This document shows, in pieces, positions 1,805-22,238 of a stretch of DNA of 32,000 nt (the stretch's first letter is position 1; each line of letters begins with the position of its first letter). The notes below the pieces were generated by a model that did not search any database, was not told the DNA's origin, and worked only from the letters and a program-made list of their open reading frames with translations. The position numbers and the translations under genes were made by a program. The stretch is taken from assembly GCF_964059045.1 (NCBI RefSeq), contig NZ_OZ060402.1, positions 450,001 to 482,000 on the forward strand. Direction: 5' to 3'. The stretch is from Candidatus Saccharimonadota bacterium (GTDB taxonomy: Bacteria; Pseudomonadota; Gammaproteobacteria; Enterobacterales; Enterobacteriaceae).

Positions 1805-2428
1805 ATTATTTATCATGATAAAACAATAAAATTAAATATAATATTGTTCTGATAATTTCTATTGTTGATTAAACCATCAAGAATTTATTTTGATATTATA
1901 TCAATAGAATAAATAATTATATTTAATATTTTATATTAAAAATATATGTCAAAAAAATAGACATATTTTAAAATTATTTAAAATACAATAATTTTTAATG
2001 CATTTTTTATCTTTTTATGCAATATTTTAAAAATAATTCAAAATTTATAAATTCTATTTAAAAAAATAAATAATTTTTATTATTTTATTAATTCAATGAT
2101 TATTAAAAATTATTTTTATAATCAACAATATTTTTTAAAATTAATTATTTATCAATCTTAATTGATTATCTAATAATAAATTTATATATAAAATATTTTT
2201 TAAAATTTTTAATAAAAATATAATTTTATTTTCAAAAATAATTATTATTAATTAAAAGTCAATTATAAAAATATATATATATATAAAATTATATTAAAAA
2301 AATAATATATTTTTTATAAAAAAAATGTATTTATATAATTTTTAAAAAATTATATTTTCATTAAAAATTATTTTATATAAATTAACATTATTCATTAACA
2401 ATATATCATTAAAGTGCTCAATAAAAAT

Positions 2429-5029
2429 ATGATTAACAATTATAATCCAGCAGAAATAGAAAAATTTGTTCAAAAATATTGGAAAAAAAATAATACATTT
2501 CAAGTTACAGAAGATCAAAAAAAAGAAAAATATTATTGTTTATCAATGTTGCCATATCCATCTGGAAATTTACACATGGGACATGTAAGAAATTATACAA
2601 TTAGTGATGTCATTTCTAGATATCAAAGAATGATAGGTAAAAATGTTCTACAACCAATAGGATGGGATGCTTTTGGATTACCTGCTGAAGAAGCCGCTAT
2701 TCAAAATAAAATCAATCCTGCAGATTGGACTAAAAAAAATATACAATCTATGAAAAAACAATTATTACTATTAGGATTTAGTTATGATTGGAACCGAGAA
2801 ATCAATACTTCAAATCCAGAATATTATCGTTGGGAACAATGGATATTTAAAAAATTATATCAAAAAAAAATCGCATATAAAAAAACAGCCCTGGTTAATT
2901 GGTGCCCTAATGATAATACAGTTTTAGCTAACGAACAAGTAATTGATAAAAAATGTTGGAGGTGTAATTCATTAGTTACTCAAAAAAATATTTCCCAATG
3001 GTTTTTAAAAATAACTCATTATGCTGAAGAATTATTAAATCATTTAGATAAACTAACTGGATGGCCGAAAGATGTAAAACAAATGCAAAAAAATTGGATT
3101 GGAAAATCACAAATAATAGAAATTAATGTATTTGTTAGTCATAATAATGAAAAATTAAAAGTATATACTAATCGATTAGATTATCTTATGGGAGCTACTT
3201 TCATAGCTATTTCTACTTGTCATCCATTGTCAAAAAAATTAAAAAAAATAAATAAAAATATTAATTTTTTTTTAAAAAATTCTTGTTCTAATTTAGATTA
3301 TGCTAGTAATCAAAAAGAATTTAATAAAAAAGGAATTAATACTAATCAATTTATTATACATCCATTAACAAATCATTTAATACCAATATGGATTGCAAAC
3401 TTTGTTTTAAAAGAATATTCAGTTAACTCAATTATTTGTACTCCAGCACATAATCAAACTGAATGGGCTTTCGCAAAAGAAAATAAAATATTAATCAAAT
3501 CAGTGATTCTTGATATTAATAATGAAAACCCAGATATTACTCAAAAAGCAACAATAAATACAGGAATTTTATATAATTCTCAACAATATAATGGTTTAAA
3601 TAATAAAACAGCATGTGCTGTAATATTTCAAACATTAAAAAATAAAAAAATAGCAAAAAAAAAAATAATTTTTAAAATTAAAGATTGGGGGGTATCAAGA
3701 CAAAGATATTGGGGAACCCCTATACCAATGGCTATTAGTGAAGATGGTACTATACATACTATACCTGATGATCAATTACCAGTAATGTTTCCAAAAATAA
3801 AATACACAAATCAAATCAAAAATAAATTAAAACCATATAAACTCTCCGAATGGAAAAAAATATTAATTAATAATAATCAAGCATTAAGAGAAACAAATAC
3901 ATTCGATACATTTATAGAATCTTCATGGTATTATGCTCGTTATACTTCACCTCATGATCAAAAATATATGATTAATCCTATTGCAGAAAAATATTGGTTA
4001 CCAGTAGATCAATATATTGGTGGAATAGAACATGCTACAATGCATTTAATATATTTTAGATTTTATCATAAATTATTAAGGGATTTTGGATTAGTAACAT
4101 CGGATGAACCAGTAAAAAATTTATTATGTCAAGGAATGGTATTATCAGATGCTTTTTATTACTTTGATGATAATAATAAAAAAATTTGGATCTCGCCTAA
4201 CCAATTAAAAATTGAAAAAGACAAAAAAGAAAAAATTATTCAAATTACACATAAAAATAAAAAACAAATTGTTCATGCAGGTATGATTAAAATGTCTAAA
4301 TCAAAAAAAAATGGCGTTGAACCAGAAAAAATTATTCATCAATATGGAGCAGATACACTAAGATTATTTATTATGTTTGCAGCACCAATAGAAATGTCTT
4401 TAGAATGGAAAGAACCAGGAATTAATGGATTACATCGTTTTTTAAAAAAATTATGGAAATTAACACATGATTATATTAATCTAAAAAATATTTACATTAA
4501 TTTAAATTGGAATAATCTGAATGATTTTCAAAAAAAAATAAAAATAAAAATTAATCAAACAATTATAAAAGTAACAGATGATATTGATCGCAGAAAAATA
4601 TTTAATACTGCAATTGCTGAAATTATGAAATTAGTTAATATATTAACTAAAATACCATTAATTGAAAAACAAAATAAAAATTTAATGTATTACGCTTTAA
4701 TTAATATTATAAAAATGTTATATCCATTTACACCTCATATATGTTTTATAATGTGGAAAAAAATAACAGGAAAATATGATATTGATAATCATAGATGGCC
4801 TAATACTAAAAATCTCATTATTAAAAATAATAATTATTCTATTATTTTTCAAGTTAACGGGAAAACACGTCAAATTATTAATGTTGATCAAGAAAACATA
4901 ACACAAGAAAAAATTATATCCATAGCTATTAATGAACCAAAAATTAAACAACAAATTGAAAGTTATAATATAAAAAAAATTATTTATATTAAGAATAAAT
5001 TATTAAATATAGTACTTATTAAAAAATAA
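2429..5029 (+). CDS. leuS: Leucine--tRNA ligase (LeuRS)
   Basis: Colinear with E. coli LeuRS over the whole length. HIGH (HMGH) and KMSKS motifs are present, as are WGVSRQRYWG and FDTFIESSWYY. I chose ATG 2429 because MINNYNPAEIE aligns residue for residue with E. coli MQEQYRPEEIE. The ORF-track GTG at 2414 is an alternative start. Confidence 0.95.
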   Translation: MINNYNPAEIEKFVQKYWKKNNTFQVTEDQKKEKYYCLSMLPYPSGNLHMGHVRNYTISDVISRYQRMIGKNVLQPIGWDAFGLPAEEAAIQNKINPADWTKKNIQSMKKQLLLLGFSYDWNREINTSNPEYYRWEQWIFKKLYQKKIAYKKTALVNWCPNDNTVLANEQVIDKKCWRCNSLVTQKNISQWFLKITHYAEELLNHLDKLTGWPKDVKQMQKNWIGKSQIIEINVFVSHNNEKLKVYTNRLDYLMGATFIAISTCHPLSKKLKKINKNINFFLKNSCSNLDYASNQKEFNKKGINTNQFIIHPLTNHLIPIWIANFVLKEYSVNSIICTPAHNQTEWAFAKENKILIKSVILDINNENPDITQKATINTGILYNSQQYNGLNNKTACAVIFQTLKNKKIAKKKIIFKIKDWGVSRQRYWGTPIPMAISEDGTIHTIPDDQLPVMFPKIKYTNQIKNKLKPYKLSEWKKILINNNQALRETNTFDTFIESSWYYARYTSPHDQKYMINPIAEKYWLPVDQYIGGIEHATMHLIYFRFYHKLLRDFGLVTSDEPVKNLLCQGMVLSDAFYYFDDNNKKIWISPNQLKIEKDKKEKIIQITHKNKKQIVHAGMIKMSKSKKNGVEPEKIIHQYGADTLRLFIMFAAPIEMSLEWKEPGINGLHRFLKKLWKLTHDYINLKNIYINLNWNNLNDFQKKIKIKINQTIIKVTDDIDRRKIFNTAIAEIMKLVNILTKIPLIEKQNKNLMYYALINIIKMLYPFTPHICFIMWKKITGKYDIDNHRWPNTKNLIIKNNNYSIIFQVNGKTRQIINVDQENITQEKIISIAINEPKIKQQIESYNIKKIIYIKNKLLNIVLIKK

Positions 5030-6111: not shown

Positions 6112-6755
6112 ATGAATTCAATATATGCAATATTTGGTGGTTCATTTGATCCTATTCATTATGGACATTTAAATATAATAAATAAAATTATCAAAGAAAT
6201 AAAACTTAAAGAAATAATAATTTTACCTAATTATAAACCAATATATCGAAATAAATCGATTACGAATATTATTCATCGAATTAAAATGATCAAATATGCT
6301 ATATCTAATCAGATTCAATATAAAATTAATTTAATTGAAGTAAAAAAAAAATTATTTTTACTATAAACACATTAAAAATAATAAGATCAGAAATAGGAGC
6401 AAAAAAACCTATTGTTTTTATCATAGGAGAAGATAATTTAATTAATATACAAACTTGGAAAGAATGGAACAAATTATTAAACTTTTGCCATTTAATAATT
6501 TGTCCTAGAAAAAATAACAACTTAAAATTAAATCAAATATTAAAAAAATGGATCCAGAAAAATAAAATTACTAATATAAATTTATTAAAAAAAAGTGCAT
6601 CTGGATATATTTTTTTTTCAAAAATTAATTGTATTAATATTTCTTCAACAGTAATCAGAAATATGTATTATCAAAATCAAAATGAAAAAAATTTAGTACC
6701 TCAAAAAGTTTTAAACTATATAAAAAAACATAATCTATATCAAGATCCTTCATGA
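6112..6755 (+). pseudogene. nadD: Nicotinate-nucleotide adenylyltransferase NadD, split by a frameshift inside an A10 run (6342-6351) and possibly still expressed via slippage
   Basis: The N-terminal 84 codons (6112-6366, GGSFDPIHYGH motif) stop at TAA 6364-6366. The rest of the protein continues without stops in the frame whose codons start at multiples of 3. It reads KKKIIFTINTLKIIRSEIGAKKPIVFIIGEDNL...NISSTVIRN...VLNYIKKHNLYQDPS* with TGA at 6753-6755. One extra A gives about 214 aa, against 213 in E. coli. Confidence 0.9.
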
Positions 6756-20409: not shown

Positions 20410-22238
20410 ATGAATATAAAAAATATATTAATATTGACTTTTAAAAAAAAAAAATTAGATCTATTGATCTATATTTTGCATTATATATTGGACAAAAACA
20501 ACATAATTTAATTATACTGGCTGCAGCATTAACAAGTTATGCAATTGGAAATGGTCATATTTGTTTACCAATTAAAATTCTTAAAAAAAATATTCTTAAT
20601 TTAGAACATGTTTTATTATTAAAAAATAAAATATCTAATTTAATTGGACCTGAAAAGTTATGGCATGAAATTTTTTTAAAAAGTGATACTATTGGTAATG
20701 AATTTATAATAAAACCATTAATTTTATATAATAATTGTTTATATTTATATAATACTTGGAAAGCCGAACAATCAATATTAAATTTTTTGTATCAAAAAAA
20801 TAATATATATATTCAAAATCCTATCCAATATAAAAAAATATTAAACAATTTATTTCAAGGTGATAAAAAAAATTTTCAAAAAATAGCTGTTGCTATGGCA
20901 ATGATGCAAAAAAAATTATTTATTATTGGAGGACCTGGTACAGGAAAAACTACTATTATTGCTAAAATTATTATAGCATTAAATAAAATAAATTTAAAAC
21001 CAATTAAAATAAAACTAGCTGCTACCACAGGTCAAGCCGCTTCTCATTTAACGCAATCATTAAACAATACATTATTGCAACATTCATTAAAAAACAATAC
21101 TAAAAATTTAATCTATACAGCTACAACCATTCATAAATTAATAGGAATTAAATCTGATTGTAATCGTGTAAAATTTCATAAAAAAAACACAATAGATGTT
21201 GATACTTTAATTATTGATGAAAGCTCTATGATTGATTTATTTATCATGGAAAAAATAATTCAAGCATTACCAAAAAACGCACAAGTAATTTTTTTTGGAG
21301 ATATAAATCAATTACCAGCAATAGGAAATGGGACAATTTTAAAAGATATTTGTTGTTTTGCTCAAAATAAATTTAATAAAATTTCAAATTTATTAAATTT
21401 AATCACTAATTATAATATAAAAAATAATAAAAATTCTAATTTTATTAATGATCATGTTTGTATTCTAAAAAAAAATTATAGATTTAACAATAATTCTGGA
21501 ATTCATAAATTATCACTATCTTTAATGAATCAAGATCAAAAAATATTTTTAAAAATAAAAAATAATTATTTTAAAAATGTCAAAATATATACAATTAATT
21601 CTCAAAAAAAATATATATATATGTTAAACAATATTATTAAACAATATTCTATTTATTGGGAAAAAATTTTTAATCAGGAACCAATTAAAAAAATAATTAA
21701 AACTTTTTATGAATATAGATTAATAGGTGCAATACGTCATGGTATATTTGGAATTGAAGATATCAATAAAAACATAGAAAAAAAAATGCAAAAAGAAGGA
21801 TTTATTCAATATAAAATTAAAAATAATTATATAGATTACTTAGGAAAACCTATTATCATTACTAAAAATAATAAAATGTTAGGATTATTAAATGGAGATA
21901 TTGGTATTATGCTCTATAATCATAACAATTTAGAAGCATGTTTTTTGTCAAACAATGATAAAATTAAAAAAATACCAATAAATATTCTGCCAGAATATGA
22001 AACAGCCTGGGCTATGACAATACATAAGTCCCAAGGTTCAGAATTCCTACATACTGCATTAATTTTACCTAATATTATGAATTTATTATTAACAAAAGAA
22101 TTACTCTATACTGGAATTACTAGATCTAAAAAAACATTAATCATATATTCTGAAAAAAAAATATTATTACAAACCATGAAACAAAAAACGAAACGTTTTT
22201 CTCAAATTTCTAATAATATATTAAAATATCAATCATAA
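20410..22238 (+). pseudogene. recD: Exodeoxyribonuclease V alpha subunit RecD, split by a frameshift inside an A12 run (20443-20454) and possibly still expressed via slippage
   Basis: ATG 20410 opens a 33-codon ORF (MNIKNILILTFKKKK...) that stops at 20509-20511. From the A-run onward, the frame with codons starting at multiples of 3 is open to TAA 22236-22238. It reads IRSIDLYFALYIGQKQHNLIILAAALTSYAIGNGHICLP...GGPGTGKTT...IIDESSMIDL...TIHKSQGSEF. With one extra A the N-terminus aligns without gaps to E. coli RecD (R17, D20, F23-A24-L25 coincide). The total is about 609 aa against 608. The ORF-track start (TTG 20787) is an internal Leu codon. Confidence 0.9.

Follow-up and report, generated by a model that had tools for sequence, protein, structure and literature searches.

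The locus described here raises the question of whether the leucyl-tRNA synthetase (LeuRS) of Buchnera aphidicola (Eriosoma grossulariae) can still remove a wrong amino acid from tRNA-Leu. The gene lies in a 32,000-nt stretch of contig NZ_OZ060402.1 (the window, to which all coordinates refer) with a GC content of 19.7%. A preliminary description of this DNA had claimed that the CP1 editing site of the enzyme is degenerate, with a natural equivalent of the engineered, editing-blocking T252Y substitution. The gene encodes a full-length LeuRS with a conserved aminoacylation core, and we consider it probable that relaxed purifying selection and AT-biased mutation have let the hydrolytic pocket of CP1 decay.

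A full-length LeuRS with an intact synthetic site

The leuS gene, encoding leucine–tRNA ligase, occupies positions 2429–5029 of the + strand, as do all LeuRS features given below. Translated from the ATG at 2429, it gives a protein with 100% identity to the 866-residue leucine–tRNA ligase deposited at NCBI for B. aphidicola (E. grossulariae), which agrees with the assignment to Buchnera in the preliminary description. The open reading frame (ORF) is open from 2414 to 5029; a start at the in-frame GTG at 2414 would lengthen the protein by five residues (871 aa). HMMER matched the E. coli LeuRS structures 3zgz and 4aq7 (E = 0, 1027 bits) across residues 5–868 of the 871-residue query, and Pfam identified domains PF00133, PF13603 (E = 1.7e-52), PF09334 and PF08264. 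This layout, a catalytic core with an inserted CP1 domain (PF13603) and an anticodon-binding domain, is that of a bacterial-type class Ia LeuRS. Both class I signature motifs of the synthetic site, HMGH (HIGH-class; 2573–2584) and KMSKS (4289–4303), are present in the translation, as the preliminary description had stated. HMGH is invariant in 15 Buchnera sequences, with H49, G51 and H52 invariant in an alignment of 65 sequences, and KMSKS is invariant across Buchnera.

The CP1 editing domain itself is full length (residues 226–415; 3104–3673), as judged by the PF13603 match and by the structural and evolutionary evidence below. An AlphaFold2 model built from the 65-sequence alignment had a predicted local distance difference test (pLDDT) score of 90 and a predicted template modelling (pTM) score of 0.86, with most of CP1 at pLDDT 89–97, and superimposed on E. 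coli LeuRS (5omw/4aq7) with a template modelling (TM) score of 0.93 in Foldseek. These values speak to the fold and are silent on catalysis, as the alignment contains intact homologues.

The editing pocket is extensively substituted

Residue numbers in CP1 coincide with those of E. coli when the ATG at 2429 is taken as the start; for the correspondence, the PDB chain was corrected for its tag, which offsets it by 20 residues. In the HMMER alignment with E. coli LeuRS, VYTNRLDYLMG is paired with VYTTRPDTFMG, and KEYSVNSIICTPAHNQTEWAFA with the 22-residue E. coli block, without gaps in either motif. MAFFT alignments of 12, 58 and 154 sequences returned the same register. The preliminary alignment to E. 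coli LeuRS, made by eye, thus had both the peptides and the register right, and its residues and coordinates agree with the translation throughout.

An editing-competent CP1 would be expected to carry the threonine-rich region T247-T-R-P-D-T252, the GTG loop and the universal Asp at 345; here, all three are altered. The threonine-rich peptide reads TNRLDY for TTRPDT (T248N, P250L and T252Y; 3167–3184), and its Tyr252 codon, TAT (3182–3184), gives a natural version of the T252Y change engineered in E. coli. The GTG loop (G331-T332-G333) is replaced by SVN (3419–3427), and NQTE stands for DQRD (3452–3463), giving D342N (3452–3454), R344T and D345E (3461–3463). In this register, positions 252 and 345 are Tyr and Glu rather than the Thr and Asp of E. 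coli. The changes listed in the preliminary description all stood, but it had overlooked three further pocket substitutions, namely R344T and, within ICT for MAV at positions 336–338 (3434–3442), M336I and V338T. The P250L change that it listed is present but carries little weight, as Pro is found at this position in only 91 of 150 LeuRS proteins of a reference panel. Residues T247, R249, D251, Y330 and H341 are unchanged with respect to E. coli.

The panel comprised the best 150 LeuRS (50% identity clustering) obtained when 1.84 billion cluster representatives were searched exhaustively with HMMER, and it shows how unusual these substitutions are. Position 252 is Thr in 136/150 members and Tyr in none, while at position 345 Asp is found in 146/150 members and Glu in none. 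Conservation is similarly high at T248 (135/150), through the GTG loop (G331, 137/150; T332, 121/150; G333, 140/150) and at D342 (140/150) and R344 (138/150). Across 13 pocket positions, 103 of the 150 panel members have no change at all, compared with 10 changes in this LeuRS. Only a few members have six or more pocket changes, and most of these are AT-rich proteins (KNIYF fraction generally 0.36–0.57) or have a CP1 that is partly deleted or truncated. The panel thus reproduces a link between pocket changes and AT-rich, reduced-genome proteins.

Decay is restricted to the pocket

The CP1 domain as a whole is only 33% identical to that of E. coli, compared with 62–69% for the core. We rejected this divergence as an argument: CP1 of Serratia is also about twice as divergent as its core, and raw domain identity is without weight because CP1 evolves faster than the core in free-living relatives too. 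For this reason, tests were carried out instead at positions conserved in at least 90% of the 150-member panel. In this LeuRS, 8 of 18 such positions in CP1 were altered versus 3 of 102 elsewhere (Fisher p = 6.7e-6, odds ratio 26); for E. coli LeuRS, the same positions gave 0/18 and 2/102. Within CP1, the pocket keeps 3 of 13 residues (T247, R249 and Y330) whereas the scaffold keeps the consensus at 17 of 23 positions. Decay is therefore restricted to the editing pocket, bearing out the pocket-specific decay that the preliminary description had proposed.

The three conserved positions altered outside CP1 are G174, N88E and L454F. A separate observation concerns the first of these: the zinc-domain motif DGCCWRC reads DKKCWRC here (window 2948–2953, residues 174–175) and NKKCWRC in the symbiont of E. 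harunire. The zinc-domain cysteines C159, C176 and C179 are retained in this LeuRS.

The E. harunire symbiont, whose LeuRS is 65% identical to that of the E. grossulariae symbiont (DNA at locus L040), allowed the rate of change to be compared between classes of site. The two Eriosoma symbionts differ at 7/13 pocket positions, a proportion comparable to that at the least conserved CP1 sites (50/100), while differences are few in the scaffold (5/23) and at conserved non-CP1 positions (8/154; p = 1.3e-5). Pocket positions now evolve as if unconstrained, at the rate of the variable sites of CP1. The ratio of non-synonymous to synonymous substitution rates (dN/dS) in CP1 and the core, a comparison that the preliminary description had suggested, was estimated between the same pair by the Nei–Gojobori method (NG86). 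Values of approximately 0.40 for CP1, 0.27 for the rest of the protein and 0.32 for the C-terminal domain were obtained, which are rough, since a dS of approximately 0.8 is probably saturated at 20% GC. CP1 as a whole is clearly not neutral in its evolution.

Five of the ten pocket changes are to residues with AT-rich codons (Asn three times, Tyr and Ile). Drift towards such codons fits mutation pressure on unconstrained sites.

History of the pocket within Buchnera

A comparison with other Buchnera and endosymbionts, also suggested at the outset, allowed the changes to be placed in time. Approximately 47 Buchnera-type LeuRS were collected with a Buchnera-profile search and aligned, and a neighbour-joining tree was built on the non-CP1 columns. 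Two other approaches to finding homologues contributed little: a search with CP1 alone returned only three fragments, and a whole-protein contig scan yielded 39 distant LeuRS loci from unrelated metagenome-assembled genomes, with no Buchnera, which were not used.

D342N and loss of R344 are found in all Buchnera LeuRS in the set and also in Erwinia haradaeae and Profftia. The Aphis-clade Buchnera nonetheless keep 11 of the 13 pocket residues (FTTRIDT ... YGTGAVMSVPGHNxND) and, because the other 11 persist, the two changes are apparently compatible with continued constraint. This suggests that D342 and R344 were the first residues to be lost, without freeing the remaining pocket. The combination of D342N and R344 loss with an otherwise intact pocket was seen in P0286–P0297 (Aphis-clade Buchnera), P0070 (Erwinia haradaeae), P0312 (Profftia) and P0080.

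Heavy decay is seen in the Eriosoma pair, where 8 and 10 of the 13 pocket positions are changed (10 in the E. grossulariae symbiont), and in Macrosiphini-type LeuRS, which have 6–10 pocket changes, typically including T248N, T252L and G333N. Two further clades are also decayed. The replacements differ: position 345 has been lost in at least three ways within Buchnera, to Glu (Eriosoma), His (several clades) and Ala (once), while L, I, V, A, K and Y are all found at position 252 in one lineage or another. From their placement on the tree, heavy pocket decay arose independently in several Buchnera lineages.

Both Eriosoma symbionts share E345, N342, I336, T338 and the losses of R344, G331 and G333, but the E. 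harunire symbiont retains T248, T252 (codon ACG) and T332. Tyr252 is unique to the E. grossulariae symbiont among the approximately 47 Buchnera-type sequences and is absent from all 150 panel members, and the TAT and ACG codons of the two Eriosoma symbionts are separated by at least two nucleotide changes. This distribution indicates that Tyr252 arose on the E. grossulariae branch, after loss of the conserved Asp and of the A76-binding loop. The pocket would then have decayed in three steps: D342N and R344 loss, in or before the Buchnera ancestor and apparently tolerated; loss of the GTG loop with M336I, V338T and D345E in the Eriosoma lineage; and T248N, T252Y and T332V on the E. grossulariae branch only. 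Since D345E, D342N and the R344, G331 and G333 losses are common to a sister that still has Thr252, Tyr252 probably arose late, by drift, in a pocket that was already compromised, rather than as an adaptation or a selected 'block'.

Consequences for editing

Three motifs define the LeuRS editing site, and its GTG loop binds A76 of the tRNA (PMC3747510). The conserved Asp forms a salt bridge to the amino group carried by a bound non-cognate amino acid, and mutants of several LeuRS at this residue lose post-transfer editing, which the D345A substitution abolishes in E. coli (PMC3017609). T252Y lowers proofreading by the E. coli enzyme (PMC11327963). The literature therefore agrees with the roles that the preliminary description had assigned to D345 and to a tyrosine at position 252.

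As the threonine-rich peptide, the A76-holding GTG loop and the Asp that binds the alpha-amino group are all altered and the pocket is drifting, we infer that hydrolytic post-transfer editing is likely lost or severely impaired. Such a pocket would be inactive, Tyr252 would additionally fill the space for the amino acid, and mischarged tRNA-Leu, chiefly norvalyl-tRNA-Leu, would most likely be hydrolysed very poorly or not at all. The CP1 fold would persist for enzyme structure and for tRNA handling and aminoacylation, as has been proposed for mammalian mitochondrial LeuRS.

Norvaline arises as a side product of the leucine pathway (PMC4932531), and LeuRS editing is regarded as having this amino acid as its physiological target (PMC10500172). 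When E. coli carrying D345A was grown under microaerobic conditions, norvaline was found in 10% of measured Leu positions, while even harsh conditions led to no misincorporation of isoleucine (PMC4932531). Because that strain misincorporated norvaline and not isoleucine, the expected error in the symbiont, by analogy, would mainly be Leu to norvaline rather than to isoleucine, and it hinges on norvaline accumulation. Buchnera presumably retains the leucine pathway, through which it feeds its host, and this would be the source of norvaline.

Alternative explanations

The most serious alternative is that the pocket has been remodelled yet is functional, with Glu345 anchoring the amino group together with T247, R249 and D251, perhaps with altered specificity, and Tyr252 acting as a stricter gate against cognate Leu. 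Several observations weigh against loss of editing and towards this idea. A carboxylate is kept at position 345 in both Eriosoma symbionts and T247, R249, D251, Y330 and H341 persist, so that residual or altered hydrolysis may occur; the dN/dS of approximately 0.4 in CP1, besides being a rough estimate, is below 1, as would also be expected of a domain that is still functional; and some substitutions are evidently tolerated, as the pocket of Aphis-clade Buchnera still has 11 of its 13 residues even though D342N and R344 loss have occurred. What is known of the effect of Tyr252 comes from the pocket of E. coli and not from the remodelled one found here. Pre-transfer editing in the synthetic site, known from CP1-deletion studies, could also still guard fidelity. 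However, the change from Asp to Glu is a one-step, conservative substitution that is nevertheless found in 0 of the 150 panel LeuRS, which argues that Glu is not equivalent; our literature search returned no data on a D345E LeuRS. The A76-binding GTG loop is replaced (PMC3747510), T252Y lowers proofreading in E. coli (PMC11327963), and the sister symbionts differ at pocket positions as often as at unconstrained sites. We therefore regard an active, remodelled pocket as improbable.

Positive selection for the loss of editing is less probable again. It could have favoured adaptive mistranslation (a 'statistical proteome'), an idea raised for host-restricted parasites (PMC7373986, PMC10057733), or faster or cheaper charging with Tyr252 fixed as a block, and it is in keeping with this that position 252 has repeatedly come to carry a bulky or hydrophobic side chain (L, I, V, Y or K) in several Buchnera lineages. 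The outcomes are mixed, though, with Ala or Thr also found at 252 and His, Ala or Glu at 345; half of the changed pocket residues (5/10) are Asn, Tyr or Ile, as drift predicts; and Tyr252 came later than D345E and loss of the GTG loop. A vertically inherited mutualist would also have no obvious gain from antigenic variation, and we found no specific support for selection. A third explanation, that the substitutions are an artefact of a wrong register, of sequencing or assembly error or of a leuS pseudogene, deserved consideration since the first alignment was made by eye, the DNA is extremely AT-rich and the neighbouring nadD is frameshifted at a poly(A) run. It is excluded by the concordant and gap-free HMMER and MAFFT alignments of both motifs, by an intact 866-codon ORF that matches the deposited protein exactly, by the nature of the changes, which are multi-nucleotide codon replacements with no indels, and by the sharing of most of them with the E. 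harunire symbiont genome. Decay of the pocket by drift, with the rest of the enzyme maintained, is the explanation that we favour.

Neighbouring genes

Around leuS, the genes run in the order ybeY-corC-leuS-holA-nadD-tusA-asd, with others, recCBD among them, beyond asd. No second aminoacyl-tRNA synthetase, including other editing synthetases, was found within the window. On the strand opposite the substituted region, only two short ORFs (39–44 aa) were found, neither of which overlaps the altered codons.

The nadD gene (window 6112–6755, + strand) contains a single frameshift, from frame +3 to frame +2 at approximately 6345–6366, just past a poly(A) run encoding 'EVKKK'. Each half shares 54–56% identity with NadD of the E. 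harunire symbiont (L040:6709–7371), which is intact. The gene may have become a pseudogene, the homopolymer may have been misassembled, or polymerase slippage at poly(A), a process described for Buchnera, may rescue the gene. In recD (window 20445–20787, + strand), the first canonical start (TTG at 20787) gives an ORF whose match to the RecD profile begins only at position 141 of 619. The frame is open for approximately 114 codons further upstream, to a stop beside a poly(A) run, and by the impression of its sequence this stretch could be the missing RecD N-terminus; the true recD start may be non-canonical or disrupted. Finally, corC and leuS are separated by a 625 bp, extremely AT-rich spacer with no ORF (window 1805–2428), and the E. 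harunire symbiont has a spacer of similar size (667 bp) in the equivalent position (L040:2335–3000). As lnt follows the corC homologue in E. coli, the spacer may represent what is left of an eroded gene, or it may be a promoter region.

Implications and comparison with known systems

As a class of phenomenon, the loss of editing is not new, having been reported in host-restricted bacteria, in Mycoplasma and in mammalian mitochondria. The present case brings three modest additions: the natural Tyr252, the contrast between pocket and scaffold, and the parallel losses within one genus of which one clade keeps its pocket. Together, these provide a well-documented added case, at residue resolution, of obligate intracellular bacteria letting translational proofreading decay. 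The contrast between Aphis-clade and decayed enzymes could help to reveal which factors keep LeuRS editing in place in nature, norvaline exposure for example, and also how far a chaperone-buffered symbiont proteome tolerates mistranslation. The natural Tyr252 enzyme offers a ready comparison for the engineered T252Y used in non-canonical amino acid incorporation. A wider idea, which we put forward only tentatively and think rather unlikely as it stands, is that Buchnera represents a natural editing series in a leucine-making, norvaline-generating symbiont, running from the near-intact pockets of the Aphis clade to the independently dead ones of Eriosoma and Macrosiphini. On this idea, if the Eriosoma LeuRS is indeed without editing, norvaline should be measurable in the symbiont proteome, or else it never accumulates in bacteriocytes, in which case its absence would be the condition that released LeuRS editing from selection.

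Of the known systems, the E. coli T252Y and D345A mutants share with this enzyme the substitution of positions 252 and 345. They are, however, single changes in an intact pocket, whereas 10 of 13 positions differ here and residue 345 is Glu rather than Ala. Mycoplasma LeuRS, likewise a bacterial LeuRS of a reduced genome, has a natural editing defect with mistranslation reported at Leu codons (Li et al. 2011, as described in PMC7373986 and PMC10057733); the preliminary description had cited such mistranslation for both Mycoplasma and microsporidian LeuRS, and the literature agrees (PMC7373986). The LeuRS of M. mobile (3ziu, 637 aa) lacks CP1 and gives a TMq of only 0.60 to our AlphaFold2 model, while in the Buchnera enzyme the domain is complete and the pocket alone has decayed. 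The organisms are also distant, Mycoplasma belonging to the Mollicutes and Buchnera to the Enterobacterales.

The closest analogue is mammalian mitochondrial LeuRS, in which a degenerate CP1 is kept for structure and aminoacylation and proofreading is absent (Lue & Kelley 2005 and Ye et al. 2015, as described in PMC10500172); mitochondria are reportedly without free norvaline (PMC10500172). In both enzymes, CP1 is retained and catalytic residues are lost, although the mitochondrial CP1 also has peptide deletions while that of the E. grossulariae symbiont is full length. A further difference lies in exposure, as mitochondria are reportedly norvaline-free whereas Buchnera would carry the norvaline-producing leucine pathway.

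Among host-restricted bacteria with small genomes, synthetases commonly have decayed editing sites (Melnikov et al. 2018, as described in PMC7373986 and PMC10057733). No papers on editing by Buchnera LeuRS were found in our search. The likeness is close: a reduced genome, mutated editing residues and a preserved synthetic site. The LeuRS described here shares features with naturally editing-defective enzymes, belonging to a host-restricted Buchnera and combining 10 changes at 13 pocket positions with a conserved synthetic site. Three details come from our own analysis: decay of the pocket and not of the scaffold, parallel losses within Buchnera and the near-intact pocket of the Aphis clade.

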